From positions 7,851-71,850 of the forward strand of contig JAAEQW010000139.1 in NCBI GenBank assembly GCA_024231025.1: a stretch of DNA of 64,000 bases, read 5' to 3'. The DNA is from Candidatus Omnitrophota bacterium (GTDB lineage Bacteria > Omnitrophota > Gorgyraeia > Duberdicusellales > 4484-171). Positions within the stretch are counted from its first letter, which is position 1; every line of letters starts with the position of its first letter. The position numbers were made by a program, and so were the translations under genes. Under the pieces are notes generated by a model. It was not told the DNA's origin. It saw nothing but the letters and a program-made list of their open reading frames with translations, and did no database searches. Shown in pieces: positions 36,001 to 63,996 of this stretch.

Positions 36001-39000
36001 CCCCTGACTCTTTAGATAATCACGCCCGCCAAAAGCAGTATAGATAATTTTGAGTTCGTCATCCGTTGCATTACGATCAGGAAGATTTTCGGTTGGCATG
36101 GTGGCGGGAAAGTTATGGCTGCCTTTTTCCTTGGTCAACTGCCCAGCCACTAATTGATAGACTTCTTTCCATACATTAAAATACTGACCACTTTGTGCGG
36201 CATAAGAGATTATAAAAGACCAAATAACAAACACACCGCTTTGCATAAGGAAAATATGTTTAGGAAAATATACAAAAGCAATTAAGTTAATTATCCCCCA
36301 AATCGGAAGAATAGTAATAACAAGTGTTGTTGGGATCTTTAAAAAACGCCTCCATCCAGAAACTGAAGAATTAATAAAAGGTTCCTTGCCACTTTCTTCT
36401 AACGACTTTCCTTCAACCAAAAATTTATTCAGAAAAACATCAAACCAAAAACTACCGCTAAGGCCCCAAAGTACTAAGTCAATAGCCCACATAATAAGAG
36501 CGGGATGATTACCAACCAAATTAGAGGTGAGGTTAGCGTAATAGGGCAAAGCCATACCAAGCCAAGCCATTCCCCAAATCGGACCAAATATAAAAATCGC
36601 GGCCAAAGCCACGCGCAATAGTTTGCCCGGAATAAGTTTTGCCTGTTTATTTTTTATGTTTATAGCAGTAAGCTGGGCAAAATAGTTTCCCAAAACCCGT
36701 GAAGAAACAGCAACCACTATAATCCGAGAGATACTATTTACATAACTAAATTCAGCGCTTGCAGTCCCAAACCAAAATAAGCTGATCAACGCACCATGCA
36801 CCAAAGAAACTGCTAAAACCACCTGTTTCGGATATTTTGTGAAAATCCGATTAATCTTACCTTGAATAGCTTCCAGCCTAGAAGTGCCGCCTCTTGCGTC
36901 TTCAGTCAACTCCGCTCGATATGCTTGGTGCTCACTTGCTCCGCTATTACTATTCGCACCACGCGCTGTGTCTTTTACAGAAAGAGCATCTGTAATCTCT
37001 TCAATACTTGCAGCAGGATCTTGCGGATTAAACTGCACCACCTTCATTCCTGCTTTACGCGCACCATCGATGTTAACCTCAAGATCGTCAACAAACAAAC
37101 ATTGATCAGGGGTAAACGAAACTGAATCAAGCACCGCCTGATACATCAACGGATCTGGTTTACGTGCACCAATATTCTGAGAAGCAAAAATATCGCACTC
37201 GGCTATTTCTAAAGAACGAAACGTCGGGATAATCCTACGGTAAAACATCGGATTGTTATCAGTTAAAATCCTAATTGCATAACTTCTCTGCTTTAAATCT
37301 TTAATCAAAGTTGATATTTCCGGAATAAGATCGCCACAAAGATTATCGTTAATAACCTCAAACCCTGCTTTGCTTACTCTACTCCCTGAGACACCTCTTT
37401 GCTCAAACCACTTCTTAGTGGCCTCAACTAACTCTTCGTCTGTCGCAATTTGCCCTCTATCAAACTTATAAAACGGATTGTTCACATCATCAATCCTTCC
37501 GCTCCAATACTGCCCTGCTACTTCTGGCGAACATCCAAATTGTTTACTAATGTCATCAACCACCTCTTCTTCGTTGTGACGGACAATCACATTTCCCACA
37601 TCAAAAATAACGCATTTGACCACACTATTTATATCTTTTATCACTCTTGTTTTTTTGCCCTCGGATATACTTTCTACACTATATTGAGCAATCTTGGTAG
37701 TAAGACTATCAAAATGCTCATCCAGCTCATTAACACCTGGCAGAAGACTGAACATATGGTGGAAGTGCTTGCTGTTGACACTAGCTCCAGCCCACAAACT
37801 TTGGTATATAATTGCTCCATTTGTTCGGTAGGCTAAATCAACGAATGCGAAAGCGTCTTTAGCTTCGAAATATTGTCTTTCTCTCTGGGCTAATACAAAT
37901 GTTGCGTAGTAATCCTCAGATGGCTTAGCATTGGGAATAATGTGCCAGCGAGATTTTTGTTCAATAAAACCATCTAAGTCCATGACTGCTAAGGCTTCTA
38001 TTATTTCCTGCTTGAGAACAACAAATCTATCATTATCTAAAGTTACCTCCGCAATTGCTGCACGAATTTGGTCTTGACTATAGCGATGGAAATCTTCTTC
38101 TGAGAAAGAAAATCTCCTCATCACCTCATGCGCCCCCACACTCCGTCCGTCAAGAATATCTGATTCACCTTTTTCTCTTGGAACTACAATAAGTGAATCC
38201 TTGCGGCCCAAAAGATCAAAAGGGATATCTTTGCTCTGAAGAACATCGATTATTGTATAAAATATCAGTGCGCTAACTTTTTGATCAAGCCCTTTTACCA
38301 CAAAACCATTCGGTTCTTTTAATTGTGCTAAATCAACTGTAACTGGCCTAACTCTTGCATCCAATCTTTTAATTTCGCCAAGTTTTAACCCATAGCTAAT
38401 TGCGTTATCTGCAGTTACAACATCGGCAAAGAAAAACTTTGGCTCCTGCTTAAGCTTAATCTCGGAAAGATCGAGCCACTCTGCTTTTTTCAATTTGCTT
38501 CCTCCGGGCCATATACCACATAAAAAAGGACCCTTCCACTCTAAAATCTTCAGCTTTTCTCGGGCCTTGCTAGAAATAGCAAAACCGATTTTTTTCTTCC
38601 ACAATCTCTCCCAACGAGTTTTTATTTCGGATGCTAAATCATGGGTGGCCCAGCTATTTATGCCCTGCTCTAAGATGCTGAGCAGCCTAAAGATGGTCTT
38701 TGCATAATTGTACTCGCTCTTTTTAACCGCCGCCAAAGCAGCATCATTTAATAATTGAGACAGCTTTTCAGCCAAATCAGCAGGTTCTTGAGTTTGCCAA
38801 TTCTCCACAACATAATCAGCTTCTAATCTATACGGATAACTAAATTTTGCTGCACGTCGCCGAATTCTCGACCACCGACGCACACTAGATAAAACTGAAT
38901 CACCGTTTTCTAAGCCCCGGTTAATATATCGCAACAACCTTATGTCGGATGGTGCTCGAAAATACACCTTCAATGTTTTACGATTCAAGCTAGCAATTAT

Positions 39001-42000
39001 TTCTCTGACTTGATTACCGAACGCATAAATAGAATCCAGTAATAAAATATCAGAAGATGTTAGATGCAATTGCGATAGAGCCTCTTTTACCCGATACCAA
39101 TCAATCGCATCAGGATGATTAATATCTGGATTGCCCTTACCTGTCAACGGCCATTCTTCCTTGGGTTTCAAATATCGATTAACTTGAAAATGCTTAAACC
39201 TTTCGAGCTCAGAAGCTTTTCTTGCCCATTTGCTCTTTCCCGAACACTTTTCTCCCGCAACCAAAACAATACAACCTTCCTGGCCATCCATTAAAGTTTC
39301 CCTTAAGCTATTTAATGAATGTAAAACCGCTCTAGAGTAAGCTAATTCCACAGCCTCATTCTCTTGATGGGTTCGGCCATTCAACTCATGTACAAACACC
39401 GCAGTAAGATTATATTTAGGATTATTGAAGGCTGGTTGTTCAATATATAGGGCATTATTGGGTTGGTCATAATAGGCAGCAAAAGTAATTTGTTTACTCG
39501 TAATAACTATTACTTTAGGCGGACCACGTTTTGGATCAACTCTATCTTCTCTTTCTAGAAAGCTTATTGCCTTTTCCCGTGCTGGATTAATTAACTTATT
39601 TTCTTCTGCGATTGGCGCGCGAAATTCAACACTTCCGGTACGGTATTTATCCAACTGCGTTTGGGTTTGAGCCAAAGTATAGCCATTGTATCCGCCGTCT
39701 TTTGAGGAAACAGGATCATTACCATCCTTAGACCTATACTTAATTGCACCGCTTAGCTTGGCATAAAATGCCTCGATAGTTTCTTGCACAACAGCGTCTA
39801 ATTGCCCCTCTCTATTCGCAACGACAATAAAATCTCTTTCTTTGTAGTGCGCTAAATCTTTTGCGTCTCTCCTTGCGTTTACCTCGATCGCCCGAACGAT
39901 ATTTTCCTCGCTAACCGATTCACCTAACTGCGTTAGAGCCCAAATGGCTCTATCTCGAGACTGCGCACGAATGAGAAAAGAAAACCTTGCCTCAGGATGC
40001 TTATTTCGTCCCACCACAATAACCGGAGAAGAAAGAGACATTTCCTTAATTTGATCCTTCATACGGCTTGCCAATTTAGTCGCAACGGCTCTGTTGCTCC
40101 TCCAAGCAACATTAGCTGCACTAGTGATTTCTGGCTGCTCAATATCTTCGGTTACGTCTACTCCGTCAACAAACACTCTTTCTTGCACCATAGTAAAAGT
40201 TGTATTATTAATTAGTCTCAGCATTCCTGATCTGTCTGTTAAGCTAACCCCTTCGTTGAAAGCCTTATGGGTTATCGCCCGATATATCTTACCACGGTCA
40301 AAAACCTGACCGCTAATGCGTGCAGCAAACGCCCAAGCAATAGCAGATTTACCAGTATTACTCTTTCCGCAAACCGAAACAATTATGCCACGACTGCTCT
40401 TAGCACTATGTAAAGGCATATTGAACTGCTCAGGAGTAATCTTCCCCTCTAAAGTGCTAATCAATCCACAAACAACTTGTGCATATCTGTATTTACTTTT
40501 TTTAATCACCCTATCAGCTGTTTTACGCATCAGAGACATTAACTTATCGCTTAAAGAAACAATTTCTTCTGGCTGCCAGTTCTCCACCATATAATCAACG
40601 TATGATTTATAAGGCTCAATAAATTCGACTGCACGCCGCTCAATTCTTGGCCAAGCACGCACGTTAAAAAGTACAGAATCGCCCATCTTCACACCTCGGG
40701 CAATCCGCCGTAGTAATCTAATCGCTAAAGGCGCCTGAAAATAAACCTTAACAACCTCACGCTCTAGTCCGCAAGCTATCTCACCTGTCTCCTTACCAAG
40801 GGCATGCAAAGAATCTAACAATAGTATGTCACTGGTTCCAAGTTGTAGCATTTTTCCTGAACGCCTTGTTGTTCTATTGTTTACCTTGTCATAATTTGCC
40901 ATTTCTACAAAACCATTCTTAGATAACGCCTCTAAGTCTTCCTTCAACCATTCCCAGTTAATCGCACGAGGATGATCAGCATCTGGGTTACCGCTACCAT
41001 CTATAGGGCGATCTTCCTGGCATTTAAAATATCGATCGACAGGAAAATGCACAAATTCATTACGTCCATCAAGACTCCTTGCCCAGGTAGTTTTCCCTGA
41101 ACAGCTGCTTCCGGCAACTAAAACAATGGCGCCCTTATGGTCAACAGCTAAAGAATTCGCCAAGCTCTGCTGTGAATGCATTACTGGGTTATGTGGCGGT
41201 CTGATTTCGTGCAACCGCCCAATGAATGACTCTCTATTTTTCAAAAAGAGCTCTCGGAACGAAACAAGGTCATAAGAACCAAACAACTTTAAAAATGCAG
41301 CTCTTAGCTCTTGGGGAGTATACCCATCCGTAGGATTAGTGTCGATTCCGGCTAATTGTGTAGTATGATCATATAGCCTTTGATCGAAAAACTCTATCAT
41401 TGCCGGGATTATATCTTCTAGCTGCCGACCCTTTGAAATCACTACATCCTTGCGCGCATGTCTTACAATTGTTGTTCGAATATCACCATCAACCACCAAG
41501 ATCTCTCCGTCATCTTCGCTAACACCAAAACTCGCTAATGATCCAGGGTAACGATTCGGGTACATATCCGATCCTAGCACAACAACCGAACCCTGCCTTG
41601 CCTGTCTATCAACAGAATCGTTATATCCTGCCTCAAAGCTACTACTTAAATCAATTATTTTAGCGTCAATAATTCTTGCTAACTCATCAGCGATCGCTAG
41701 CTTTGCATTTTGTGAAGAACCGTAAATAGACACTATGATTCCTGTATCTAAAATGTTTTCTACGGCAGCAACTCCCAATCTAGTCATTTGTTCAATCGGT
41801 AGTTTTCGCCGTAAGGCACTAACCAATCTCGAAGCTAACCCTAAAGACTGCCGATCTCTTTTGGGATCCATTTTAGAAATCGCATCCTCTAGCAAAAGTC
41901 TAGCCGGCTCAGACCATTTAGATAATTCATCCTCACTCCAATTCTTTATTAAATAATCTGCAATATCCTTGCCTGGTTCAATAAACTCTGCGGCGCGATG

Positions 42001-45000
42001 CTCAGCCACAAAGAACTGGCTTAAAACAATCTGCGGCTTCATTGAGCGCTCTTGCGCATTTCTAACTACTTTTCTAAAAAACTTAATTTCCGAAGGAAGA
42101 TCAAGATAAACCTTAACGACTCTGCGCTTTAACTTAGAAAGTAAATCAACTAGCCTCCGATCAAAGGCATGAATTGAATCAATAACCAAAATGTCATTGG
42201 AACCCAATCGCACTTTTTGTCCTGTGCGTCGCTTCTTAAAGCTTGCAAAATCTACCTCGCCAGTCTCAATCAACGCAGTTACATCCGTACAAAACCATTC
42301 CCAATTAAAAGCATCAGGGTGTTCATGGTCTAACAAACCATCCCACCTCTTAGGGTGTTTAAAATAACTATGAAAATATTTATCCCCAATGAAACGCTTT
42401 ATCGTTGGTACCGAAGCACACCATGTTTTTACACACCTACTCTTACCTGCCGCACTAGAACCAACCAACAATACAACCGTTCCTGCTGGTTGCCCTGCAA
42501 TAGCCTTCGTTAACTGACTAATACTAGAAAACCGATGATCATCTCCAAAGGTCTGCCTAGCCAGGCTTGCCTCAAAGCATGCCTTCTTGGCTGTAAGCAG
42601 TTTTGACTGCTTTTTGCTTAATTTACCATCTTTAACCTCAGCTTTAGGGAATTTCCAATGTTCCCTTGAAAAAGCTTCACATGGTGTAATATTAGATTGC
42701 TCAGAATATTTATTGCTTAACTCCTTTATTCTGCTAAACATCTCACTGTAAAGTTCTACCAATAACGCTGAATCCGACGATAAACTTGTTGCGCTCTTGC
42801 GGAAACTTGCAATTCCCTGCAACGCTGCTATCGTAACTGGGTACATTGCTTCAGACAATAGTCTATCCGTACCCTTGCTAAGCTCTTCCTGTGTTCTTTG
42901 CCACTGACCATTCCAAAAATCTATAATCACCGTTTCCTCATAAGGTCGAAACAATATTCGTAACTCTCTTATTCTTTGGGAAATCTCAATCTCTCCTTTT
43001 AATGCTGAATTAGCTAACTGCCCAATAAAAACCATATATCCACTGGCATCGACAAAAGAGGCAATGTTTGGCCGAAGATATTCATGCACAAACAAATCGG
43101 TAACAATACCATCAACCGAACCGCAATTGATCATTTCCGGAAAAGCATAACTACCCTTATCTTTTATATCAATCAGTAAGCGAGCAATTTCACCGATCAA
43201 CTCTTGGGAAGCTGGCACATTAACATATGATTTAATTTGCATAAGCAATAATCGCAGAAGTTGTAAGTACTCCCCATAATCAGGGTGATTACTGTTTGCT
43301 GCCAGGGCACGGTCTGCTAGACGGATCTTTTCACTATCAAAAGTAATCGTTTCAAGCTGATGTGGACCAACCTCTTGATAAGCAAGTATTGGCTCCATCT
43401 CCTGCCAATCTTCAGGGATTTGAGACCAAGAAGATCCGGCAATAAAAGCATCCGCCGGAAATCTACTGCCATCATAAAAAGGCACAAAAGCAAAAGGCAT
43501 TTGAGAATCAAAGGCTTGATGGACTATTTTAGCCGGAATAACAACTCCACCAGTCTTTACCCAATCTTCGATAAACATAACCCCGCTTCCTTTAATCTCC
43601 TGACCAGTCCTGGTATAAGATAAAAGTTTTCGTAATAAAGGTAAGGTTGAATATTCAACCGGATTGTGTGCAAAATAAGCATTAGCTTTTTGTTCTGCGA
43701 TATCGGCAATCCTCCTTGCTTCCTTAATAGCCCTAATAACATTTATTTCTCCGCCTTCAACATCATTGAGGGCATCCTCTATCTTTTTATTCGGTAAATC
43801 TAGTTCTGGATAATTCAAGCATAAATCGTAAACACGATTAAGCCAGGTAAGCACTTCTTCTCTAAGTGTTGCATCAGCTATACCATTTTGCATTCTTCGC
43901 TTAACGGTTTGAATACTACAACCCCCTGTATCTCTAGCAGGAGAGGCAATTAATTGAGTGATTTCAAAGAAACGTCGGTCAATTCTACCATGCTCAACTA
44001 ATAATCTGACCGCTTCTTCTACACTGATACCAACTAAATCAGATAACTCAATGTCTAGCTCCCCTAATTCTTGTAGGCTGACCGATGAAGTAATATCGCC
44101 TGCCATGTCTTCGGTAACCATAATTGCCCGATCTTCTTGAGTAAGAATTTCATTTAATGCCGGAGCAATCGATGTGAATCTACCCAACTTAACATGAGCA
44201 ATATCCTTCTCTTTCGGCAAATACATTCCTAATTTTTCCTCAATCGTTTGCTTCAACTCACTTTCACGTAAAAACTCCAAAGCTTTGATGATTTTACTAT
44301 TTCTGGAAACAACAACTAACTTGTGACTCCTGCGCATTCTCAATAAAGAAATAATATAAAGCGGCAACTCCTGAGGTGTAACATATAATCCCCAGGCGCC
44401 TTTTTTAATAGCCTTATCAAGGGAAAAATCAGGATTTTTCATCTTATCTCTTATAAGATAATCTATGTAGCGAACTATTCTTTCTTGATTAGGAAAGGTG
44501 GATAAAGCTGTCCGACGGAAAGCAACTACTTCTTCTTCGCCTAACTTAAAAACTACCTGCAATCGAGTAAACGCAGCCTTAAGGCGTCTGTCAAGATCTT
44601 CAAATACCCTAACAAGAGGAACCTGCACTCGATCTTTAGCGATGTCTCTACTGTCTTTGGCTTCGGTGTTAACCTCAATCAACTCACCCTTACTATTAAA
44701 TCTCAATGATCTCCCCTCAGGGTCAAGAAAAATACTTTTCTTAAGCAATACTGCTGTCTTTGCCATGCCTAAGCCTTTTACTGAGTAGGCACCCGCAGCA
44801 GTGAGTATTGTTCGATCGTGCCCATTTGGCTGATCGCCAGCAATGAAAATATTCTCTTCCTCAGCTTCAACACCGCGAATTGCAGTTAACTGTTCTTGGA
44901 AATTAATTAATCCTTTTCTTTTAGCAGAACAAGTTATGTCTAAACGCCTAGATCTCGTCATGCGATCTCCTCGATGAACAAGAAAGTCAATAGTTATTCC

Positions 45001-48000
45001 CGGAAAGCCTTGGCTTATCAAACGCTGCCGAATAACATCTCGTAAATATTTAACATAGCTACGATTGTGCTCGCGACTTTCTGGTTTTACTATCCAGCGG
45101 TATGGCTTCTTATGAACTATTTTAAGCTCTAATCTTTTTGTAATCTTCAATAAAGCATTTTTTTCAGAAGCAGAAAATTCACTTCGACCATACAGCTTTC
45201 GCCCGCTGGCAGTAACTCCTTCGTTAGAATTATCCGGATAGATAAACATATTGTCGGCAGCGGCAGAATATGCATCACTTCCCATTATATGCTTCATTGG
45301 TTCAAGAAGAACATGCTTAGCTCCTTCAATCGGCCTAGCTGTATTGAACGATAATAATATTCCATGGTTTGCCAACTCTACCAAAAATCCTAGAATTTCA
45401 TGTGAAGGATAAAGAGTGCCGTCAATATCGCAATGCAAGGCAATTTTAGGTTTTGATAAAGCATCATGGGTATAGTTTATCTTCATAAATTCTTCAGTGA
45501 ACACCTCTATATCTCTAGTAAACAACTCTCCGCAAAAGCGTAAACCGTAAATGTCTATCATTCGTCGAAGCATCGCTTTAAAATCTTCGTGGTCAACATG
45601 TTTAATGCTATGAAGGAAAAATTGAAAAGTGTAAGGTTGATATTTCCGCGCAATGCTCACACAGTCACTACCCAAAAGTTGAATGGTGCTGCCTATATTT
45701 AAAACCGTATCCATCCTAATGCCATCAAAAGAAGTCGAAATATGTCCATTACAAAATTTTACCGTTTTCCGCCAACACGATTGCTCTCTATTGCTAACCT
45801 TCTTGGTAGGATCCAAATTGGCAACATGACGCACGAAAGAAGTAAAGGCATTTCGACCATTATCAGCGACTGTGAGCACCTCCACATCATTGTTAACCGC
45901 TGCCACAACCTTTACCTCCTTGCTCTCGCTCTGGGCATAGTCTGAAACTGCATTTATTATCATTAGCTCTCTTAAAAAAGCTCCCAATTGTTTAGCTGGA
46001 CTCGAATGAAAAAGTTGTCCCTTCTTTTTATTGTAATCTATGCGATGGCCAAGATTATGAGCACCAAAAGGATTATGAGGAGTGAAAATCTGTGCAGCCA
46101 TAAGTCTCAGAAAATCACGAAGTTCTTTGTCTCCTTTCAACTGCGGCGGCTCCGTTCCCATCTTCTCATACCAACCTCTTACTTTATCCAAAGTAAGTGC
46201 GGAATTCCTCCAATCAACTGAAGGCACTATTCCAACTCGACTACGAATTGCACGCCGCCTTCCACCTAACAAAGATGGTATTTTCCACCAATTATCATTA
46301 GATCTAATTAGTTCTTGAGGATCAAGATGCATAGCCGAAGCTACCCTAGTTTTATGATCAGCAGCAAAACACTCTACCTGAGGTCCTTTGTTGTTGTCGC
46401 ATCTTCGAAACACTTTATCACCGATTACACCATATTCACCGAAAAACCTAACTAGGCTAGCCAAATAATACACGATTGAACCAGCCGCCCAACTATCAAT
46501 AAATCTTATCTTAGAATGTGAGAAAATACCCGACTCTTTCAACTCCTCATAAAACTCTACCGCCCTCTTTTGAAAACTAATTTGACTAGTCATTAAAACA
46601 ATAAAATCACGATAGATTGACTCTCTAAATGCATCCTTGTTTTTAGCACGATGATGTTTTCGAATTATCTTCCTTATGTCATGGTATATAAAATCCATCT
46701 TGGCCCTGCTCAAATAATAAATCATTGAATCATTAGGAAAAATATCTAATTGATCCATCAAATACGCGGCAGTAAAATCTCGTCCACAATCTCTTGCCAG
46801 AAATACATTTATTTGGTTAGGATCAACTATCTGCTCAACAACATAAGGCGCCACACCAAACATCCCGATCAATGCCCTAGCTAAATTATCATTAGGATCA
46901 GAAAGCATCTTCACGAAAGAGTTTGCCGTAAGATTTAAAAGAACACTATCTAATTTTCCTAAGGGTTGGGATAAATCAATTTCCTTTGCCAGAGAACCGG
47001 CCTCGCGAACTACCTCACTTATTAACGCTTGTCGATTGCGAAATGAAAAAGACGCTTGCGGATAATAAAATTTGTCTACTCTGGAATCGCTGATTGGACG
47101 AGCATAAAATTCACTTTGAATATCGCTTTTAACGCCATGAAACTCTCGTAATAAACCAGCCTCAAATATTGCTCTCTGAGCTTCAATAGCAGTTAAAGAT
47201 ATTGAATCAATATTTTTATCTATACCTGGGGCAAATTTCAAATGGGCCTTATTTCGTGTTCGACACGGTAAAATATTAAACATCTCGTCATAATTCTGAG
47301 CTAATACCCCTATTGCCCCCATCATCTCGCCATAAGCCACTTTTAATCTCTCCGATTCAGTTGAAGAATCCGCTGCTAAATTACGAAACTCAACGATTGC
47401 TTCAATAGTTTTAATTGTAAACTCGGACATATTAATCTCCGTTAACCTACTAGCTCCTAGATTAATCTCTTTCGTCGTTTTTTGCCACTCATCTCGCCAA
47501 AAATTCACAATCGCCAGTTCTTCTTCGGCTCGGAATGATCCTCTCAACTTAATTAATTCTTGAGAAATCTTAATCTTATCGGTTAACACCAAGTTAACCA
47601 ATTTCTCGATAAAAGCTGTATAGCTAATAACATCTTTAAAGAAAGACACATTGGGTCGTAGATACTCTTTGATAAAACGAGCACTAATAAATCCATCTTT
47701 AATTTTTGCCCCAATTATCATTTGCCCATCATCACAGCTGCCCTCTTCCTTAACATCAATTAAAAAACGAATAATCTCAACCAAAACATCTTGCGCAACC
47801 ATCACATCAACTAAAGAGTTAATCTGCAATAAAACACTATAAATAAGCTCTAAATACTTATAGTAATCAAAGTAATTATCTAGGGCAACAACGTTCTTTG
47901 CGAGATATTTTTCTTGATTTTCGATGGTAATTTCCTCTAACTGATCTTTTTCAACTTCACGATAGGCAATAATTGGTTCCCAATCCTGCCAATCTTCTGG

Positions 48001-51000: not shown

Positions 51001-54000
51001 CTTAACATTACGTTTGCGCTTTTTGCCTATTCCCGGTGTTAACTTGTTAAGCGTATATCTGTGGAAATCACTACCGCCAGAAACCATCAGCCCATGTCTC
51101 TGCGCGAAACCTGACCAGTATTCATTGCTTTCTGCATTATGCTCAGAATGAAATGCTTCAATACCATCTAATCCGGCAGGAATCAATTTATCAATAATTG
51201 TCTTCCCCCACATCATCTTACTTAAACGCAATATCTCACGTTCCTCCAAACCCTGTCTGTGCCTTCTCTGAGAAATAAATCCTTTTTCCACCGCCCATTT
51301 CCAAACAAAATGCTTATCCGCCGGATGAGCAAAGAAAGCAAGACCTCCATATTTCTTAATCATTCTTATAACATCTACCGCAGGCCTAAATCCTTGCTTT
51401 GACTCTATCTCCTCTCTAATCCTAACCAACTCTTCTTGGAACTTCTGGTTTTGCCAATCAATACCATAACCTAAGATATGCGTTTCCCCACCATTGAGTT
51501 CTGCATGAAGCTCAACACCAGGGATAATTTCAACACCACATTCTTCGCCAACAACAATTGCCTCTTCAATAGAATCAACACTATTATGGTCAGTAATTGC
51601 GATTGCTTCTAACCCTAAATATAAAGCTGCCCTCACAAGATCTGTTGCGCTAAATCTACCATCGCTTGCAGGAGTATGGAGATGAAGATCAACACATCCT
51701 TTTCTTGCATTTCTATCTTTAGGTATCCTTATTTTCATCTTTCGTAATACATCAAAGGAACCTAATTTTCGATATAAAGCTGCTGCTTCTTGCTTCTGCG
51801 CATACGCTCCTGGAGCAAATTCAACAACAAACAAACGCACAAGATCAAACTTAGGATCATCTAAGGTTTCTCGTTTAATATACATTCTATTTATAAACTG
51901 ATCGTAACAAACAGCAAAAACAACTGTTTCATTCTCAATAATTATTGCTTCTGCCGGTCTGACATCTTGAGAAATTAAATCTACACCCCTTAGAAACGTT
52001 AAGGCTAAATCTTGAGCCAAATCAATCAATCTGCCTTCTCCAGCAGTAGGCTCCCGTAATTTTATTCCATCCTTGAAAAATAGCGCACGCGAAAACTCGT
52101 CTGTATCTTTACACCCAACCTTCTCAATGTGGCCTAAAGAAACTGCGGAGTTAGAGAAGTCTGTTGCTGCCTTTTGCATAAAAGGAATCGGACCAAAGAC
52201 AAGTTGAAACTGCCTGCTATTGTTGGTAGTGCTACATCCCGCATGCAAACTTTCATAAGTAACAACCCCGTTAGTTTGACAGGTCAAATCAACAAAAGCA
52301 TAGGCATCTTTGCGCTCAAAATACTGCCCCTCACCTTGAGATGAAATAACTGAAGAGTGGTAATCCTCCATTGGTTTATTCATTGGAATAACATGCCACT
52401 CAGATGGCAGCTCAATGCCATCGCTATTTAAACTCACCAAAGATAATGCTTTCATTACTTTAACTTTTAATTCTTCAAATTTCTGATATCCAAAAACAAC
52501 TTCCTCTATCGCTCTATCGGCTGTGCTTTGATTATAAACATCGTACTCTTCTCTAGTAAAAGCAAACCGCCCCAACAACTCGTGCGCCCCAACACTTCTG
52601 CCATTAAAAACGTCAGCTGTTTCTTTCTCTCGTGGAAATACAAAAATTTTATCTTGATAGCCACAAACATTAAAAGGAATATTATCATCCTGCAAAACAT
52701 CTACTATTCTATAAAGAATAGCCGCTTTAAGGTTGGGGTTATCTCCACTTATAACAAAGCCGTTAAGACCAGAAAGGCAAAATAAATCAACCTGACTAAA
52801 ATCATTTTTTGTTTCTCGACCGCTATTAGCACCTAGCTTTAACCCAAAAATAATTGCATTATTTCTATTAACTTTATCGACAAGACTTGACAATAATGGC
52901 CTTCTAAGTTTAATTGACTCTACCTTTTTCTTTGGTTTACGACTTCTAGAGCCAATACCAAAAATATGAGATCCGACATGCCTTGTATTTTTGAACCTCA
53001 TTCTATGACGCGTTGCAATAGCAAAACCGATTTTCTTCTTCCACAACCTCTCCCATCCAGTTTGCACTTTAGCATCAAAATCATAACTAGCCCAATTATT
53101 CGCCCCATGTTTCAAAGACCCGATCAACCGGAAAAATCTTTCTGCTCTATCAATCTCATTTTTTTCAACCGCACTAATAGCAGACTGATACAGTACAGGA
53201 AAACTTGTCGCTTCTATTAAACTAGCTTCAAATGCTGCCTTCTCTGTATGGATTTGGCTAAGTTGCTCATCCGTTAAATTATGATTAGTGCCCGGTTCAA
53301 ATTTTAAATAATCGTTTCTAGGACATCGACCTTGCCAGCTACCAAATTGTTGACTATACGTTTCCACCAACTCGCCCATACGACCTCGCATCTTCTGATA
53401 AAGCATGCCTGGATTCTGCGATTGCTCAAAGGAAACTCTCGCTTGTTGACGAAAATCAGCAATCGCCTGTAGCGTCGCGGTTGTAGCCGGCAACATCTTC
53501 TCAGATGTTAATCGCGCCGCGCCTTTTTCAAACTCCTCAATTGATTTATGCCATTCTTTTCTCCAAAAACGAATAATTTGTATCTCCTCATAGGCACGGA
53601 AGGTATTTCTTAATTCAATTAACCGCTGTGGAACTTCTATCTTCCCTTTTATTACTAACTTAGCTAATTTCACAATACATTTCACATACTTAAGTGAGTA
53701 ACGGGGATAAATTATATTCGGGCGAAGATATTCGCTTATAAACCTATCAGTAACCAAACCCTCAGGAATCTCTCTATTAACCATTGTCGTATCATACTCA
53801 AAATGTCCCCTTTGCTTTATGTCGATTAAAAATCGGGTAATTTCGCCGACTAATTGCTCAGAAAGATAAGCGCTGACTCCTCCCTTCACCTGATCAAACA
53901 GATTCCCTAAAAGCTCAATATATTCCCTGTATTCATCATCTTCACTATCAACGGTAATTTGTTTTTCTAAGCGCTTCTCCTCGCTATCGAAAGTTAACTC

Positions 54001-57000
54001 CCTTAAATCATAGCCTTCCCTTTCCGTAACTTCCTGATAGGCAATAATCGGTTCTAAATCCTGCCAATCTTCCGGTGGCCGCACGCGATTGCCTCCTTCA
54101 ATAAAAACATCAGCAGGAAAACGGCTATAGTCATAAAAAACTGCAAAGGCAACCGGTCCCGGCGAATTAAATGCCTGAGCAACTAGTTTGGCCGAAGCAT
54201 AAAGCCCACCGGTCCTTACCCAATCGTCGATAAACATAATTCCGCTTTCTCTAATGTATTGATAAGTCTTAGTATAACTTAGTAATTTTTGTATCAAAGG
54301 CATTGTCGAATATTCAATGACATTGCGGGAACAGTAAGTCTGACCTTGTCTGGTCACAATTTTCGCAATTGGACGAAGCAAGTTAAAAGAATCTTTAAGC
54401 CGTTCTACATTCGAAAAGCTAATCTCTTTATTAATTTCACCCACTCCCCGAATAGTTTCCTCTATATCTTGCTCAGCTAAATTTAATCCCGGATAACTAG
54501 TGGCTAAACTATGTACTCGCTCTAACCAAGCGCTCATCGCCTCTTTGGCTGCTTCTATTTTCTTTGTTCTTTTTTTCCTACTGCCCTTAGCGTGGACAGC
54601 ATCGTTTTTAAATCGATCAACGGTTTCAATACTGCTTCCACTGGAATCTCTACCTACAGTAGCAATCAAACATGTAAGCTCAATTAACCATTCCGGCATT
54701 GTACCCCGCGCGTCTAAAATATTAATTGCCTCTTCTAAGTTAAGACCAACTAGTTCTTGTGCGTTTATTGCTAATTTTTGCACACTTACTGCAGACATAA
54801 TATCTCCTACCATCTCTGCGGTAACCTCCTGCTTTCTTTCCTCCTCAGAAAGAATCCCATTTAAAGCCACAGCCAAAGGCAAAAATCTAGCTAATCGAAC
54901 GTGAGCAATATCTTTCCTTTTGGGCAATTTTACTCCAAGCTGATCCTCAAACATCTTTCCGGCTGCACTATTACGCAATGTCTCAATAATCTCAATTAAA
55001 GCTGTATTTCTTGAACAAATAACTAACTTTTGTTTGTTGTATGTCCTCAATAAAGAAATAAGATAAAGTGGCAATTCCTGATGCGCAATATAACTATTTT
55101 CAAAACCCCCATTTACTTCCTGCTCAAAAGGGCTTTCAGGTTTCTTGCGATGACGAAATAGTAAATAATCTAAATAGCGAATCAACCTTTCCCTGTTGGG
55201 GAAGTTGATCAAAGCCATATCACGAAAGGCAGAAAATTCTTCTTTGCCTACCGTAAAAGCATCTTGCACTCTTATAAAGGCCGCATTAAGAACATTTTCA
55301 CTAGCATCAAAAACCCTAGTTAAAGCCGGATCAGGATTAACATAGCACCCCTTGACCTTGGCCCCAATTTCATACTGTGCCTGGGCAACTTTATTCTCTT
55401 CAAGAGTGCCACCATTTAGTTCACGCACGAATACAGCGGCAAGGCCATGCTCTGGCTTATCAAAGAATGGCCGTTCTACATACAAAATATTACTAGCCTG
55501 ATCGTAACAAACAGCAGAAGCAACTTGCCTAGTCTCAATAATCACAATTTCCGGTAATTCATCAATCAACATCTTCCCTGGCAAAACTTGACGGCTTCTC
55601 TGCATGAACCTTAAAGCAAAGCCCCATTCCCGAGAAATTACTTTATTTTCGCTTTCACTAGCCGGACGAAATTCCACGATAAATCCGCGCAATAAATTTT
55701 GAAAGGCAGAATAACCGTAAAAATCAAATGTGTAATTAATATTAGTTACAAATTCACCCCACTCTCTAGATGTTGCCAAACCGAACTCATCACCTAACAT
55801 GTTTCTTAAACGAGCGTAAACTCCACTGCCTAAATATGCTAAAGCATCATTCCCCGGCCCAAAGACAGCTTCCCATGGCATAAATTGATCGCTCTCCATC
55901 TTACCTTTAGGCTCACCAGAAATAAGCCGCACACCTTCGTAATCTTCAACAGGAACTTCCACTAATTGACCATCTCGATTAAACCTTAAAACTTTACCCG
56001 CAGGATTAATAAAGGTAGTTTTACGGAATAAGGCTATCGTCTTGGCTGGACCAACACCTTCAACAGAATAGCCACCACGAATTGAAATTATTGGGCCATC
56101 ACTTCCTTGGGGATCATCGCCAGCAGTGAAAACATCTTCGTCATTGATACTGCGATGGTGATAACCGCTCAATCTTTGTTTAAAATCATTTAAGCCATCA
56201 CCCTTATCATTGCAAGCAACTTCAAGATATACTGTATCTTCTTGGTTATTACGGATTAAATTAACTCTCAATCTATCAAACCCTTCTTGATTCAATCGCG
56301 CATTCACTTCTGTTACTAATCGCAAAAGAGGCGCTTTATCTGCTTTTCTGCTCTTTTCGGCAACTTTTGCCAAAGCTCTATTGCCAGGACCAAGAATAAA
56401 CATACTAGGGAGGTTGCCTTCTCGAGCAAGATTTTTCAAAAATCGTGTTTCTTCCTCTGAAAATTTATCCTTAGGATAAATCCGCTCACCGGTAGCCAGA
56501 TAACCACTATTAGAACAATCCGTGTAAAAAAACATGCCCGGTGCTTGGCCATCATTAATCCTTTCTGCATCAGCCTTGCGTAATCTCTCAACCATTGCTA
56601 ATTCCTGCACCATCTTACATTCGTTAAAACTACGACCAGTATTAAAAGACACGCTTATGCCCTGATTAATTAACTGTTTTAAAAAGTTCTCTATTATCAG
56701 TGATGAATCGCAAGTTCCATCAATATCAAGCATCACCCCTCGTTTAGGATATTGTAGATCTTGATACAATTGTGTAATATTATTTGCCTCGCTAAAGAAT
56801 CTAGCAAACATTGGTCTCAATAGCGTAATGCCATAAACTTTGGTCATACGCAAGAAATTGGCTCTTAATTTATTCCAATCATACCTACTACCCAAACTAC
56901 CTTCAAAAATCGCCTTTTTCTCCATAAGCTCATCAACTCTATTTGGACTTAAACTATGATCACTACCAACTTCAAACTTTAAATAAAGTTTAGAAGGAGC

Positions 57001-60000
57001 CTCAGCCGGTAAAATATCAGCAGATTCAGTGTAACGGTCCACTAATCCTTTTATCTGGGCCATCATTCCAGAATAACTCTCCTTTAATCGACTCGGCTCA
57101 ATCGAGAATGTTTTTGCTTGCTGGCGAAAATGCGCAATCGCCTGCAACGTTGCGGTTGTAGCCGGCAGCATCTCCTCAGATGTTAATCGCGCCGCGCCTT
57201 TCTCGAACTCTTCGATTGATTTATGCCACTCGCTTCTCCAAAAACGAATAATTTGTATTTCCTCATAGGCACGGAAGGTATTTCTTAATTCGACTAGCCT
57301 TTCGGAAATTTCAATCTCCCCTTCCAGCAATAAATTAGCTAATTTCGCAATAAGCCTTACATAATCAGAAAGATGCTGGCGAGTAACTATGTTCGGACGA
57401 AGATAATCATTTATAAGAAGGCTGGTAATTGTTCCTTCTTTTGCTTCGCCATTGCCTATCATTTCAGCATAATTAAAACTCCCCTCGTTTTTAATATCAG
57501 TTAAAAAGCGTACGATTTCACCAATCAATTCCTGTGAAGCCGGTATATTAATAAGATTAGCAATCTGCTTTGATACAATCTGTATTAATTCCAAGTATTC
57601 ACCATATGCCTGATCACTGCTATCAATACTAGACATGGCTCTCAAACGCTTCTCCTCACTATCGAAAGTAACTGCCGCTAAACTATGCTCGGAAACCGGC
57701 TGATAAGCCAGCACCGGTTCTAAATCCTGCCAATCTTCAGGAATTTGAGCCCAAGAACAACCTTCAACAAAAGCATCAGCTGGAAAACGGCTGCCGTCAT
57801 AAAAAAGCGCAAAAACTAACGGTAAAGATGCACCAAAGGCTTGAGCAACAACTTTTGCCGGAACAAAAACGCTTCCGGTTCTTACCCAATCTTCCACAAA
57901 CATAATTCCGTTATCTCGTATATACTGTCCAGTTTGCGTATAAGCTAACAACTTCTGCAACAAAAACAATGTTGAATATTCAATTGGATTCCGAGCAAAA
58001 TAACTATTACCTTCTTTATTTATAAGCGAACTAAAACGTTTAATTTTCTTAAAAATTTTGCTAAACTCTAGGCTACCTTCATTAAGCTGATCGGAAAGTT
58101 GTTGAATTTGACAAACTGACAAATTCAATTCTGGATAATTAGCTGCTAAATTGCCTGCTCTTTTTAACCATTTTGATAAGGCATTCAATGTATCTTGCTG
58201 ATCCACATCGCTCCGTGTCATTCTATCAATTGCCTCAATACTTCCTTGATCCACACTTCTGTGTGACGGTTCAGTTAATTCTGTAACTTCAATAAAGCGT
58301 TGATCAATCTGACCACAATCAACTAACCGACCAACAACCTCAGCAAAACTAAGACCGATTAAATCTTCTGCGCATAGCCCTAATTCTGCTAATTTTTGCA
58401 TGCTTACTGCAGATACAATATCCCTTGCCACCTGCGCGGTAACTTTACTTTCTCTCTCCTCTTGTGTAAGAATTCCATTGATAGCCCAAGAAATCGGCAT
58501 AAATCTACCAACCTTAATATGGGCAATATCTTTTTCTTTAGGCAAAGTTACATTTAATTTCGTTTCGACTAATTGCCCAAGTCTACTGTCACGCAAAACA
58601 TTCAACGATTGTATTATTTTGCTATTTCTAGCAATAACAGCCACCTTATGATTTCTGTATGCTCTTAACAACGGCACTAGATAAACCGGAAATTCTTGAG
58701 GAGTGATACACAATGTTTTCAAGCTATCCTTTACGATTCGAGCAAAATTCCGATAAGGAAAATTTATCTTATCCTGGATCAAATAATCCAAATAACGCAC
58801 AAGTCTCTCTTGATTCGGAAAAGTAGATGTTACTGACTGACGAAATTCCGCCAATTCTTCTTCGTTCAATCCGAAAACTACTTTTGATCGACTAAAGCAA
58901 CTTTCGATTCGTGCCAAACTAACTTCAAACACTCTACCAACCGCGGCTTCACAATCTTTAACCTTCACTAGCTGATCTTCTTCGTTAAACCTTAATGCAC
59001 TCCCTTTTCGATCGATAAAGGTAGTCATCCTCAACAATGCAGCAGTTTTTACTGGGCCACTTCCTTCAACAGAATAGGAGCCGCGAGCTGAAAGTAACGG
59101 TCTATCATTTTCGTCCGGTGCATCAGCAGCGATAAAAATATCCTCGTCCTGGATACCGCATTGATGATCATCACCTAATATTTTTTTGAAATTCCCTAAA
59201 CCTTGAGATTTGTCATAGCAAGCTATTTCAATATAGGTTATTCCTTTAACTGACGAACCAAGTGAATTTACTTTAAGATGTCGAAATCCTGCCTCTTTTA
59301 ACTCGCGCATAAAAAACTCTTTCAAGGCTGATAAATATAACTTTTCACTCTTTTGCGAATATTTTGACAAATACCTGTATTTTAATAAATACTTATACCT
59401 AGTCGCATATGACACTCCCAAATCGAATCGCTCACTGAGTTCTTCAATAAAATGACTTTCCTCTTCAGTCAATAAAGGTCTAGGATAAAGGCGATCCCCC
59501 TTCCACCATTGGTTAGCGCCAATTACACAAGCATCATTAGCGCCTCGACCATAAAAAAACAAGCTCGCTGGTATCCCCGTAGAAATAGCTTGACTCTCTT
59601 TCTCCATAAGTTCCTTGATTATTGCTAGCTCTTCCTTTGTGCGGCAATCATCAATGCTGCGTGCCGTATTAAAAGCCACGGGAATAGCCCTTTTTTGCAA
59701 CTCAAACAAAATAGTCTTTAGTTTGCCACTGGGCACTGATGTTCCATCAAGATCAAGCATCACGCCCCGTTTAGGATGCTTCAACTTTTCAGATAGTTCA
59801 TCTTCAACCAGTTCATCCTTTTTGTTAAATCTGACAGCTTTGCCTTCAGGAGTAACAAATATACTCCGCCGCAATAACATCGCGGTTTTTATCGAACCAA
59901 TCCCTTTAACGGAATAGGAGCCACGAGCTGAAAGTAACGCTCGATCATTCCTTCGCGAATCATTCCCTGCAATAAAAATGTCCCTTTCATAAATCCCCAA

Positions 60001-63000
60001 TCTATTCTTTATATCATCTAACACTTTACTCGCATCATAACAAGCAATCTCAAGATAATCTGAGCCATTGTATACATCACGAAAAACATTTACTTTTAAA
60101 TCACTAAATCCTACTTTTTCTAATTCGCCACTAATAGTTTTTCTTAATTCAAATAAATCAGCTTCATCAATCGCCTCGCGTGGCCGCAACATATACTTAT
60201 ATTTCGTATGATGCCTCTTCTTAAAATTAAACCTCTCTACAAGATCTTGAATAAAATCATCTTGTATTTTTGAAAATTTTGGTTTGGAATAAAGCTTCCC
60301 ACGACAAGCATCCGAAGCCTTATTCCCTCCACGACAATAAAATAATACGGCAGGATTCTCCCCCTGAGAAACTCTCTCTTTTTCCCTATCTCTTAAATGG
60401 CTCATCATTGAACATCTTGGATCATTCTTAAACTCAGAAAGCCCACGCACCGTAGAAAAAGCCAAAGGAACGCCTCTCTCATGCAAAGCTAATACGAGGT
60501 CTCTCACCGTTGAAGATGATGTGCTTACTCCGTCAACACCAAGCAGAACCGCCTGTTTAGGCTGATTTAATTTTTCATCTATCTCTTCTATCTGCTCCCA
60601 TTCTCTACCAATTTGACAAAACAATCCCTCTTGCAAGCAATTTGAGCCGTAAATATCAAATGTAAGAGCAAGCTTGCCTGCAAACTCACTCAAATCCTTA
60701 AACGTACTCAAGCCAAACTCATCAATTAGCAAGCTCTTTAGACGCGTGTATGTTGCAACATCTAATAATTTTAAAACATCATCTTCTGCACCAAAGATAA
60801 TTTCCCATGGAATAACTTGGCTGTTTTCTGCATTACCATTACTTTTTTGAGAAATACGTTGAATAGCTTCATCCTTTGTGGTAGCAACCTCTATTAATTG
60901 ATCATCTCGATTAAATCTTAAAACTTTACCCGCAGGATCAATAAAAGTAGTTTTACGTAATAAAATTGCCGTCTTGGCTGGACCAACGTCTTCAACAGAA
61001 TAGCCACCACGAATTGAAATTATTGGACCATCACTTCCTTGGGGATCATCGCCAGCAGTAAAAACATCTTCGTCATTAATGCTGCGGCCGTGATGAGCGC
61101 TCAATCTTTGCTTAAAATCAACTAAACCTCTACCTTTGTCAAAACAAAGTATATCGAGAAGCTTGCTTGTTGAATCAACCATAGCATCCAGGGTCACTTT
61201 TAACCTACCGCACCCTGCCTGGATCAATCTGCCCTTAACTCGATCCATTAACTCATTTAGGCGCTCTCTGTCTTCTTCTTTACCCGATGCTGGAACTCCA
61301 GCCATCCATCTGCAATCAGTAATAAAGATCTGCGCAAGGCCAAGCTCCCTGGCAAATCCTTTTAAAAACAACGCTTCATCATCGGTGAATACATCTGAAT
61401 CATAAAGACGTCTGTGTGCAGCATCATGTGCCCGATTAGAACAACTAGTGTAGAAATATACCCTTGGTGTTTCTCCTTCAGCAAGCCTAATTTTTTCCTC
61501 ATTGAGTAATCTTTTAGTCATCGCAATATTAAACCCGCCTTGCCCCCTACAATCATCAAAACTGCGACCAGTATTGAAAGATACCGGTATATTATGGGTA
61601 ATTATTTGCCGTAAGAGAGATTCTATTTCCGGTGACGGTATCGACGTTGCATCGAGATCAAGCATCACGCCCCGTTTAGGATATTGTAAATTTTTATGCA
61701 ATTGAGTAATATTGTTTATTTCAGTAAGAAACTGAGTAAATATCTTCCGTAAAAGCGTAATGCCATAAACCTTAGCCATTCGTAAGAAGTTCCTTCGAAA
61801 CTTGCCCCAATCATGCCCATAGATTATTTCCATGATTTGGTTCTCGTGATGCGTTGCGCAATTTAACTCATGCACGAATACTGCGGGAAGATTATATTCA
61901 GGATTATTGAAGATTTGTTGTTCGATGTATAGGGCATTATCGGATTGGTCATAATAGGCAGCAAAAGTAATTTGTTTACTTGTAATGATTGTTACATTAG
62001 GCGGGCCGCGCGTTGGGTTAACTCTACCTTCTCTTTCCAAGAAGCTTATTGCTTCTTCTCGTGCTGGATTAATTAACTTATTTTCTTCTGCAGTTGGTGT
62101 GCGAAATTCTACACCTTCGATGCGGTATCTACCCAACTGCTCTTGGGTTTGAGCCAAGGCATAGCCATTGTAGCCTGCATCAACTTGGGTAGAGCGTGTT
62201 GGCAATGTATCTGAAGCTCTTACTATCTTGGCCTCAAATGTTGCTTTCTCAAAGGCAAGCTGGGCGAGTTGATGGTCAGTTAATTTGGAACTGGTGCCAA
62301 CAGCAAATTTTAAATGACGTTTTTCTGGACAATATCCCGGTAAAATATGAAACGTATCGCGAAATCCGCTGACTAAATCATCTATCTTAGCAATCATTTG
62401 CTGATATGGTTCAGTTAAATCAGCTGACTCTCCAGGTAAAACGCTTGCTTGCTGGCGAAAATGCGCAATCGCCTGCAATGTTGCGGTTGTAATCGGCAAC
62501 ATCTCCTCAGATGTCAATCGCGCCGCGCCTTTTTTGAACTCTCCGATTGATTTATGCCACTCGCTTCTCCAAAAACGAATAATTTGTATTTCTTCGTAAA
62601 CACGAAACAAATCTCTTAGCTCAATCAATCTCTTAGGAATACTAACCTCATTTTCAAGAGTTAGATTAATAATCTTAAAAACAAGTTCCATGTATCTATT
62701 AAAATATTTAGGGGCGGTTAAATTAGGGCGAAGATACTCATCAATGAAACGATTGGTGACAAATCCTCTTGGTGTCCCATGACTACCAATTATCATTCCA
62801 TGATATTTAAAACTTTCTTTCTTTTTTCGATCAATTGCGAAACGAAGGACCTCTCCAACAAATTGTGGTGAAACATATGTCATATTAATAAATCTTCTCA
62901 ACTCCTCAACTTTAGTCTCCATGAGATCTAAATATTCCAAGTAATCAGAATGGGTATTATCTGCTGTCATTTTTCCTTCTAGGCGCTTTTCTTCTGTGTC

Positions 63001-63984: not shown

Positions 63985-63990
63985 TTTTCG

Positions 63991-63996
63991 CTCCTT
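63991..63996 (-). promoter_or_regulatory. Shine-Dalgarno-like AAGGAG, 6 nt upstream of the candidate ATG start at 63984.
   Basis: Reverse complement of ctcctt at 63991-63996. The spacing to the ATG is canonical. However, the upstream in-frame codons still align with the repeat unit found at the starts of modules 2 and 3, so the ORF may continue 5' beyond the window. Confidence 0.45.

Follow-up and report, generated by a model that had tools for sequence, protein, structure and literature searches.

Giant open reading frames (ORFs) have been known from the Omnitrophota since 2022-2023, among them the 'Archaeovorins' of West-Roberts et al. (2023; 10.1101/2023.11.21.568195), and PilZ, solute-binding protein/permease and glycoside hydrolase genes have been reported downstream for giant genes of this phylum (10.1101/2023.11.21.568195). 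A 'multi-enzyme metabolic cluster' class of very long Omnitrophota proteins has also been described (10.64898/2026.06.07.730766), in which internal Pfam repeats with diverged DNA are frequent and a large fraction of members has transmembrane helices only, with cytoplasmic domains (10.64898/2026.06.07.730766). Such giant ORFs carry few annotated domains (Seymour et al., PMC10066038). Here, a 64,000-nucleotide (nt) stretch of a Candidatus Omnitrophota bacterium (GenBank assembly GCA_024231025.1, contig JAAEQW010000139.1, positions 7,851 to 71,850), referred to below as the window, was analysed computationally. Its minus strand is one uninterrupted reading frame, the leading part of which encodes a long series of fused enzyme-like modules. 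On balance it is considered probable that this part is soluble and makes up the first 9,000 residues of a polytopic membrane protein at least 21,333 amino acids (aa) long, of the Omnitrophota multi-enzyme/Archaeovorin-like kind, and that it forms a tethered cytoplasmic enzyme array, possibly a polyprotein, handling nucleosides, nucleotides and probably sugar phosphates and nucleoside diphosphate (NDP) sugars.

The window resembles the described Omnitrophota giants in having an ORF tens of kilobases long, numerous transmembrane helices, a GGDEF domain, fused enzymes, diverged internal repeats and large parts free of Pfam matches. Its adjoining modules U and C, its uridine kinase-like (Udk-like) and cytidylate kinase (Cmk) domains and its module D are also homologous to an Omnitrophota giant-gene fragment (P0004), which itself lies in the published context of PilZ, solute-binding protein, permease and glycoside hydrolase family 2 (GH2) genes. 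Unlike the Archaeovorins, no HEAT, glycosyltransferase (GT1/GT5), TPR, NUDIX, C39 or S8 domain was detected at E<=0.01 in the 21,333 aa, where only a weak Cnd1/HEAT-like trace was seen. Udk, Cmk, PHP, HAD-IIB, Apa2-like HIT and the modules X-A, B and U are not mentioned in the main text of either 10.1101/2023.11.21.568195 or 10.64898/2026.06.07.730766, and uridine kinase, cytidylate kinase and PHP are likewise absent from the main text of PMC10066038. The architecture is that expected for the Omnitrophota giant class, a class which an earlier interpretation of this DNA from its letters alone (the sequence-only reading) had overlooked; new in detail are its nucleotide enzymes, the U-C-X-A orphan cassette and the B domain.

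The reading frame and its modules

The minus-strand ORF spans all 64,000 nt of the window as 21,333 codons with 0 stops and is open at both window ends. Residue i of its translation corresponds to the window high coordinate 64002-3i, and the modules described below all lie on the minus strand. From base composition, the chance probability of such a stop-free frame is ~10^-694; no open stretch of >=300 codons was found in the other frames (standard bacterial code), and the GC skew of the plus strand is negative along the whole window. Repeats within the DNA do not exceed 90 % identity and 390 nt in length, which argues that the array is real rather than an assembly collapse and that it is mostly old. 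An assembly artefact or pseudogene was considered as an explanation and rejected on the length of the stop-free frame, its chance probability and the diverged DNA repeats.

No hydrophobic transmembrane-like segment and no signal peptide were seen in aa 1-9,000. Downstream, the first transmembrane-like segment lies at aa 9059, and at least 16 are present in six clusters, the first of which (34909-36825, aa 9059-9697) follows immediately after the enzyme array. The fusion of normally small, separate enzymes proposed by the sequence-only reading was confirmed, as they lie in one chain ahead of these first helices. A cytoplasmic location of the array would follow from the presence of ATP-dependent kinases and the lack of a visible signal peptide. 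The region in which the fusion had been noted earlier (37050-63984) corresponds to aa 6-8,983, and its lower boundary agrees with the end of the last module at 37036. Its description as N-terminal is uncertain: an AAGGAG lies 7 nt upstream of the ATG at 63984, but the frame is still open upstream of this codon up to the window edge, and the five residues preceding it (PKERK) align with EERKQ-type residues of other module A copies. An N-terminal position is therefore plausible but unproven, and the gene start may lie upstream of the window.

Self-comparison and module hidden Markov models divided the first 27 kb of coding sequence into ~29 fused modules with nearly gapless tiling, in the order A1, B1, C1, C2, C3, X1-A2, C4, B2, X2-A3, D1, B3, PHP, E1, B4, X3-A4, U, C5, X4-A5, E2, E3, CMK, B5, E4, D2 and HAD-IA. 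Protein identity between copies of a module is 25-80 %. The array probably arose from a few cassettes that were duplicated long ago and have since diverged, namely U-C-X-A, which forms a three-gene operon elsewhere, pairs of Udk-like and (d)CMP-kinase-derived domains, the HIT domain D, and one PHP and one HAD-IA domain, with five zincin-like B domains in between. The orphan modules (five X-A, five B and U) make up ~51 % of the region, whereas the Udk-like and Cmk domains account for ~17 % of residues. The earlier description of the array as pyrimidine-nucleotide enzymes suits only the latter.

Kinase, phosphatase and HIT-like domains

Four Udk-like domains with an intact Gx4GK[ST] motif had been proposed, and all four were recovered: E1 (49612-50934, aa 4356-4796; GCNAAGKS), E2 (41206-42534, aa 7156-7598; GSSAAGKS), E3 (40378-41172, aa 7610-7874; GSSCSGKT) and E4 (38782-39318, aa 8228-8406; GEKCSGKS). 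NCBIfam udk was the top family for each, with E-values from 3.9e-9 to 6.3e-22. E2 and E3 scored 47-78 bits with Pfam PRK against a cut-off of 22, and E1 15 bits only. The DxY, HPDAF and RLLRRI (RRxxR-type) motifs typical of Udk are visible in the uridine-kinase-like modules, with the Asp of DxY replaced by N in E4 (VNRY for DRY), which also carries an internal 26-aa deletion. The window domains thus share the Walker A, DxY, HPDAF and RRxxR-type motifs with Udk (PF00485), but score 36-78 bits against 180-220 at the equivalog level.

The cytidylate-kinase-like domain proposed earlier is also borne out. This (d)CMP kinase module (CMK; 39784-40386, aa 7872-8072), with the intact P-loop GKSNTGKS, scored 69.9 bits against a cut-off of 26 for Pfam Cytidylate_kin and matched TIGR00017 at 7.6e-20. 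It keeps the P-loop and the D-x-G-x-x-YR motif of Cmk (PF02224), with a TIGR00017 score of 71.5 bits against an equivalog level of 135.6. E1 and E2 also have a CMK-derived C-terminal half each, in which the P-loop is destroyed (GSSQNAKL). Unlike ordinary Udk and Cmk enzymes, the domains of the window sit inside a giant chain, two Cmk-derived halves lack a P-loop and E4 has suffered a deletion. The Udk-like and Cmk domains would phosphorylate pyrimidine nucleosides and nucleoside monophosphates (NMPs) with ATP. A separate observation concerns the two P-loop-dead halves of E2 and E1 (41479-41863 against 49891-50274; aa 7379-7507 against aa 4576-4703), which are 89 % identical in DNA, far above the rest of the array; this suggests either that gene conversion occurred recently or that a non-catalytic domain is under strong constraint.

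Both a TrpH-like PHP domain and a HAD-IA unit had been recognised in the sequence-only reading, and profile searches agree. The PHP domain, TrpH/YciV-like (50950-51693, aa 4103-4350), scored 42.1 bits with Pfam PHP against a cut-off of 26.4 and has all metal-binding motifs (DLHLHT, DH, E, H, H, DFH). Its top NCBIfam matches were 3',5'-nucleoside bisphosphate phosphatase (2.4e-28) and RNase RNM (2.5e-26), at 99 bits against a cut-off of 400, and it may hydrolyse adenosine 3',5'-bisphosphate (pAp) or short RNA. The HAD-IA domain (37036-37620, aa 8794-8988; motif I FDVGNV) is YihX-like, with 59.8 bits against 29.4 for TIGR01509 and 51.3 against 26.4 for Pfam Hydrolase.

Cof-type HAD phosphatases had been counted as at least six. 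The HAD-IIB type is supported but the count is five: C1 (60865-61788, aa 738-1045; motif I DLDAT), C2 (59794-60672, aa 1110-1402), C3 (58945-59802, aa 1400-1685; DLDGT), C4 (55933-56856, aa 2382-2689; DIDGT) and C5 (44650-45570, aa 6144-6450; DIDGT). In hhalign comparisons module C matched E. coli YidA at 92.5 % (E 4.7e-7; C4) and Cof at 64.7 %, with controls at <=0.6 %. NCBIfam HAD-SF-IIB was found on C4 at E 7.2e-5 and 22.9 bits, below its cut-off of 41.8, and a PDB profile search with module C returned nothing meaningful. HAD motifs I (DxDxT), II (T/S), III (K) and IV (acidic pair) are present in C1, C3, C4 and C5; C2 has lost the nucleophile Asp (GVDGV) and is probably inactive. An insert of ~130 aa lies between motifs II and III, at the position of a C2-type cap. 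Module C shares motifs I-IV with the HAD-IIB enzymes YidA and Cof, but its motif IV is GDx5D rather than GDxxND and it falls below the Pfam and NCBIfam family cut-offs.

HAD-IIB phosphatases pair with synthases, as for trehalose-6-phosphate, sucrose-6-phosphate and mannosyl-3-phosphoglycerate. Module C is likewise constantly found beside a larger partner, X-A, both in fusions and as neighbouring genes; unlike the partners in these known pairs, X-A is not recognisable as a glycosyltransferase or other known synthase. The constant adjacency and this habit of HAD-IIB enzymes suggest that X-A could be a synthase with a site resembling a phosphoribosyl pyrophosphate (PRPP) loop, and C the partner phosphatase that dephosphorylates its product.

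Two DprA/LOG-like (SLOG) segments were part of the earlier interpretation. These were rejected, as no Pfam match to Lysine_decarbox or DNA_processg_A and no PGGxGT-type motif was found in aa 1-9,100. The two-copy modules of the region are the HIT-like D, or the CMK-derived C-terminal halves of E1 and E2. Judged by sequence profiles, D is probably a permuted Ap4A-phosphorylase/GDPGP1-like HIT domain, present as D1 (52183-53226, aa 3592-3939), where the catalytic His is lost (NNSRQFQ), and D2 (37738-38781, aa 8407-8754), where it is kept (SVNSKHFHH). The assignment is transitive: D itself has no direct Pfam match, and the relatives P0016 and P0014 match DUF4922 and ATP_transf. A profile of eight D relatives matched yeast Apa2 (4i5t) at E 8e-4, with HKHLQ aligned to NSKHFQ. 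In D1 and D2 the ATP_transf-like segment precedes the HIT core, whereas all 11 homologues with both segments aligned have the opposite order, which is the basis for the proposed permutation. The D relatives share DUF4922, ATP_transf and the HxHxQ region with Apa2 and GDPGP1-VTC2 of the GalT branch of the HIT superfamily; unlike these, the D copies of the window are permuted, the first His of HxHxQ is absent and the nucleophile His survives in D2 only. D2 may phosphorolyse a substrate or transfer a nucleotidyl group.

Over the whole array, the full motif sets are kept in C1, C3-C5, E1-E3, CMK, PHP, D2, B1, B4 and B5, but catalytic residues are lost in C2, D1, B2, B3, A4 and E4 as well as in the CMK-like halves of E1 and E2. 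The latter group probably consists of scaffold or regulatory pseudo-enzymes, and as intact copies stand beside degenerate ones, catalysis is probably confined to some of the units. For the PHP, E, CMK, HAD-IA and C modules the folds and family types are supported, while exact substrates are not.

Modules A, X, B and U and their relatives

Module A is ~575 aa long and present in five copies, each of them behind a 125-aa helical orphan domain X except A1 at the window edge. These are A1 (62212-63996, aa 2-596), which lacks X and the first ~47 module positions, X1 (58603-58986, aa 1672-1799) with A2 (56884-58602, aa 1800-2372), X2 (54991-55362, aa 2880-3003) with A3 (53203-54984, aa 3006-3599), X3 (48862-49245, aa 4919-5046) with A4 (47137-48858, aa 5048-5621), and X4 (44278-44631, aa 6457-6574) with A5 (42547-44277, aa 6575-7151). 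Five phosphoribosyltransferase (PRTase, PRT)-like signatures of the form (I/F/V)(D/E)DWV(R/K)TGG had been noted here. Five homologous sites exist, of which three are exact, in A1 (IDDWVRTGG, 63217-63243, aa 253), A3 (IDDWVRTGG, 54205-54231, aa 3257) and A5 (IEDWVKTGG, 43546-43572, aa 6810), and one is near, in A2 (VEDWVRTGS, 57871-57897, aa 2035); that of A4 (LEDSVVKGR, 48130-48156, aa 5282) is degenerate.

The PRTase identity built on these signatures proved to be motif-deep, with no support for a PRT fold from Pfam, PDB or AlphaFold. Searches of Pfam, NCBIfam, PADLOC and PDB profiles gave no match for A, and Pribosyltran (PF00156) was not found at E<=10 in the window copies; among eight members of the A family, one was matched by it at E 0.13. 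AlphaFold predicted helices around a ~110-aa core with a predicted local distance difference test (pLDDT) value of ~30 in the core in both runs. This core is the sole PRT-like part, comprising a hydrophobic strand, [DE]D, two variable residues and [TK]G. In hhalign alignments with the E. coli proteins apt, hpt, upp and pyrE, it gave a signal specific to PRTs yet shallow, falling on the PRPP loop with scores of 23-28 and pairwise E-values of 8e-4 to 6e-3 over only 14-40 columns, compared with scores of 9-20 and E-values of 0.04-0.8 for 17 controls (including CheY, CheB and three GT-A enzymes); single sequences and controls were used, and the 120 listed matches of E. coli Hpt were all >=87 % identical, giving no diverse profile. 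The window copies deviate at about four positions of the PRPP-loop pattern (W, R and non-Ser/Thr residues), and A4 is degenerate. The motif is more canonical in relatives, with that of P0003, LLFVDDIIASGKT, one mismatch from the PROSITE PRT pattern. Module A resembles type I PRTs (PF00156) in a hydrophobic strand, two acidic residues, a Thr/Ser-Gly loop, helix, strand and the PRPP-loop spacing; unlike them it has no significant domain-level match, and the remainder of its 575 aa is helical and unrelated to PRTs. A PRPP-loop-like site in A is considered possible from these motif-level similarities. The hhhhDD motif (h, hydrophobic) was also considered as a GT-A DxD or a receiver-domain site; this was rejected, as three GT2 enzymes and CheY/CheB aligned no better than unrelated controls.

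Module B, ~150 aa in length, lies between cassettes in five copies: B1 (61768-62247, aa 585-744), with its motif FVHELNCATHHEN intact, B2 (55372-55773, aa 2743-2876), where both His of the motif are lost, B3 (51730-52083, aa 3973-4090), where the motif is degenerate, and B4 (49180-49638, aa 4788-4940; HELNGQTHDEN) and B5 (39313-39783, aa 8073-8229; HELNGRTHQEN), both intact. It is the best-conserved module of the array. The motif FVHELNxxTHxEN is conserved in B1, B4 and B5 and lost in B2 and B3, and pairwise identity among the segments of B1, B4 and B5 is 62-70 %, compared with 30-50 % for the diverged remainder of the array, which points to selection on function. The AlphaFold (AF2) model of B1 was confident (pLDDT 84-93), unlike that of the A core, and Foldseek matched it to selecase, abylysin and jannalysin (probability 0.95-0.99, target-normalised TM-score 0.52-0.59, E 0.15-0.5). 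The predicted fold resembles that of the minigluzincins, with a sheet followed by a helix carrying H-E; it differs from them in the motif HELNxxTHxEN, in place of HExxH, and in the lack of similarity at the sequence level. A PDB profile search with B gave nothing meaningful. Possibly the B domains cleave the chain between cassettes, in which case it would be a polyprotein.

The orphan module U (45571-47136, aa 5622-6143) stands directly before C5; in P0004 it is also found beside C, and in another locus (L005) it is a separate gene. It had no match in Pfam or PDB profile searches. Motifs visible in U are ARDxG, RFIDSWxxG[ST] and PHNP[FY]GAxNxGHRIDW, and a further gene of L005 (2765-3901), in which ARDARG and VDTGLSGS resemble these motifs, is possibly a paralogue at some distance.

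The family is very rare. A deep search with one query sequence of 1,200 aa that spans X, A, D and B found 17 relatives among 1.84 billion representative proteins. Among 5.8 billion clusters there was one match; a search with an 8-sequence A alignment returned P0001 again and nothing else. No relatives of A or B were found in GTDB representative genomes and JGI metagenomes, nor of A in IMG/VR. The named relatives are proteins from Candidatus Omnitrophota metagenome-assembled genomes, and several relatives belong to giant genes of this phylum. P0004 (5,751 aa, beginning at a contig edge) has U-C in common with the window (31 % identity over 833 aa), as well as Cmk, Udk and D, and also carries fucose pyrophosphorylase and methyltransferase domains; downstream of it lie genes for PilZ, for the solute-binding protein and two permeases of an ABC sugar transporter, and for GH2. 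Other relatives combine fucose pyrophosphorylase, B and NDK (P0008), D and dCMP/cytidine deaminase (P0015), or C, an S-adenosylmethionine (SAM) methyltransferase and X-A (P0002), and C adjoins X-A in P0005 too. L005 has at 8011-12034 one separate gene each for U (287 aa), C (361 aa) and X-A (677 aa), which follow one another in the order of the window, with two methyltransferases, a PhyH dioxygenase, an HAD_2 phosphatase and an NTP_transf_5 protein as neighbours. Collinear U-C-X-A was also found in L006 and L007 at ~39 % identity. These two are near-identical 10-kb contigs from different samples with a coverage of ~1, in which U-C-X-A is split into many short same-strand genes; they probably derive from a related long gene that was assembled with frameshifts at low coverage. 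The closest relative, P0001 (MCP3684703.1, on a 2,484-nt contig), has the same 46 residues at both ends and is arranged A-B-X-A', and on account of these two features looks like a collapsed tandem repeat unit of another giant gene.

Several further observations concern the part of the ORF beyond the array. A GGDEF diguanylate-cyclase domain (13678-14190, minus strand, aa 16604-16774; Pfam 6.8e-36), with the GGDEF motif, lies just after a transmembrane cluster at aa 16145-16303. The membrane-rich C-terminal part contains a repeat pair (6509-6920 against 21002-21413; aa 19027-19164 against aa 14196-14333) with ~77 % DNA and at most 78 % protein identity, and a further pair (aa 9722-9887 against aa 10975-11144) is 33 % identical in protein; neither was assigned to a family. 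The only ORFs of >=150 aa listed for the window, 22901-23605 and 30971-31426 on the plus strand, are antisense to the giant ORF and almost certainly spurious.

Proposed function and its alternatives

In the proposed tethered array, the combined output would be nucleotides and nucleotide-activated sugars, supplied or recycled for the cell and for the remainder of the protein. The HAD-IIB modules, the YihX-like HAD-IA domain, the GDPGP1-like HIT domains and the relatives fused to fucose pyrophosphorylase are indicative of sugar-phosphate or NDP-sugar chemistry no less than of pyrimidine salvage. Several results weigh against this proposal. Every equivalog-level cut-off of NCBIfam was missed, for which reason the substrates of the modules may differ from those of the named families. 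The domains sought from the Archaeovorins were not found, both AlphaFold runs left the A core at low confidence, and B has no canonical HExxH and Foldseek E-values of 0.15-0.5. No chemistry could be assigned to X-A, B, U and X, which make up 51 % of residues. Finally, a true N-terminus upstream of the window may bring a signal peptide or a transmembrane helix and so alter the topology.

A more specific proposal, with pyrimidines at its centre, is a dedicated salvage or channeling factory in which the five A modules are PRTs resembling uracil phosphoribosyltransferase (UPRT) and, with the Udk, Cmk and HAD nucleotidase domains, interconvert uracil and cytosine, nucleosides, NMP and NDP. Fusions of Udk and UPRT exist in eukaryotes, and this explanation would account for the four Udk-like domains and the Cmk domain as well as for the best alignments of the A core, which were to the PRPP loops of the four E. 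coli PRTases, and the near-canonical motif of P0003. It nevertheless appears unlikely. The only Pribosyltran match was weak, PDB searches found no PRT, the hhalign matches span only 14-40 columns, and the W, R and non-Ser/Thr residues of the window copies occupy positions conserved in PRTs; between helix 2 and the PRPP strand of A there is no room for a hood or flexible loop, and the HAD, D and fucose-pyrophosphorylase evidence favours sugar phosphates. The idea of a tethered factory, as put forward in the sequence-only reading, is compatible with the data, but its pyrimidine scope covers no more than the ~17 % of residues given above. Decay of most modules is a comparably doubtful explanation, according to which duplicated enzyme folds have become pseudo-enzymes that serve only for spacing or for binding partners within a giant structural protein, as a mostly non-catalytic scaffold. 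The catalytic residues lost from C2, D1, B2, B3, A4, E4 and the CMK-like halves would fit this, as would the fact that all matches lie below equivalog cut-offs; against it, at least one copy of every recognisable family has the full motif set (C1, C3-C5; E1-E3; CMK; PHP; D2; B1, B4, B5), and the intact B copies have stayed far more alike than the rest of the array.

Two other possibilities raised by the sequence-only reading fared less well. Omnitrophota giant proteins have been proposed to act on prey cells (10.1101/2023.11.21.568195; PMC10066038), and this, together with the many transmembrane helices downstream, would suit a secreted or surface effector that rewires the nucleotide pools of a host or prey. 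Such a role is disfavoured and regarded as quite improbable here, as the 9,000 aa lack both a signal peptide and a hydrophobic segment, the five P-loop kinases need ATP, which is unavailable outside the cell, and the same modules occur as genes of an ordinary cytoplasmic-looking operon. The least probable of all is an immune or conflict-system protein acting on nucleotide signals. PHP, HIT, PRT-like and kinase domains do occur in some defence systems, and the PHP domain weakly matched the PADLOC candidate PDC-M49A (1.3e-6). This generic match was the only one from PADLOC, with nine of the ten scanned modules giving none; the scan for A found no relatives in viral contigs, and the relatives lie near PilZ, ABC transporter and GH2 genes or near methyltransferase, PhyH and HAD genes rather than in defence islands, so that this idea was left with no support. 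Beyond the tethered array as preferred here, a bolder and rather unlikely extension would be that X-A is an unrecognised family that uses PRPP or transfers phospho-sugars and forms, with U and the HAD-IIB phosphatase, a three-component pathway to a riboside- or glycoside-type metabolite, and that B is a new non-HExxH zincin cutting the giant chain into cassettes, that is, a bacterial metabolic polyprotein.

According to the published descriptions, the N-terminal and unannotated parts of Omnitrophota giants have few recognisable domains. The window shows that near-complete resolution of such a part into modules is possible, and that some of the resolved modules are ordinary nucleoside, nucleotide and phosphoester enzymes. 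The occurrence of U-C-X-A as a small operon offers a stand-alone X-A protein of 677 aa that is tractable, compared with an intractable chain of more than 21,000 aa. If it is true that B cleaves the chain, this would bear on whether the Omnitrophota giants act whole or as polyproteins.

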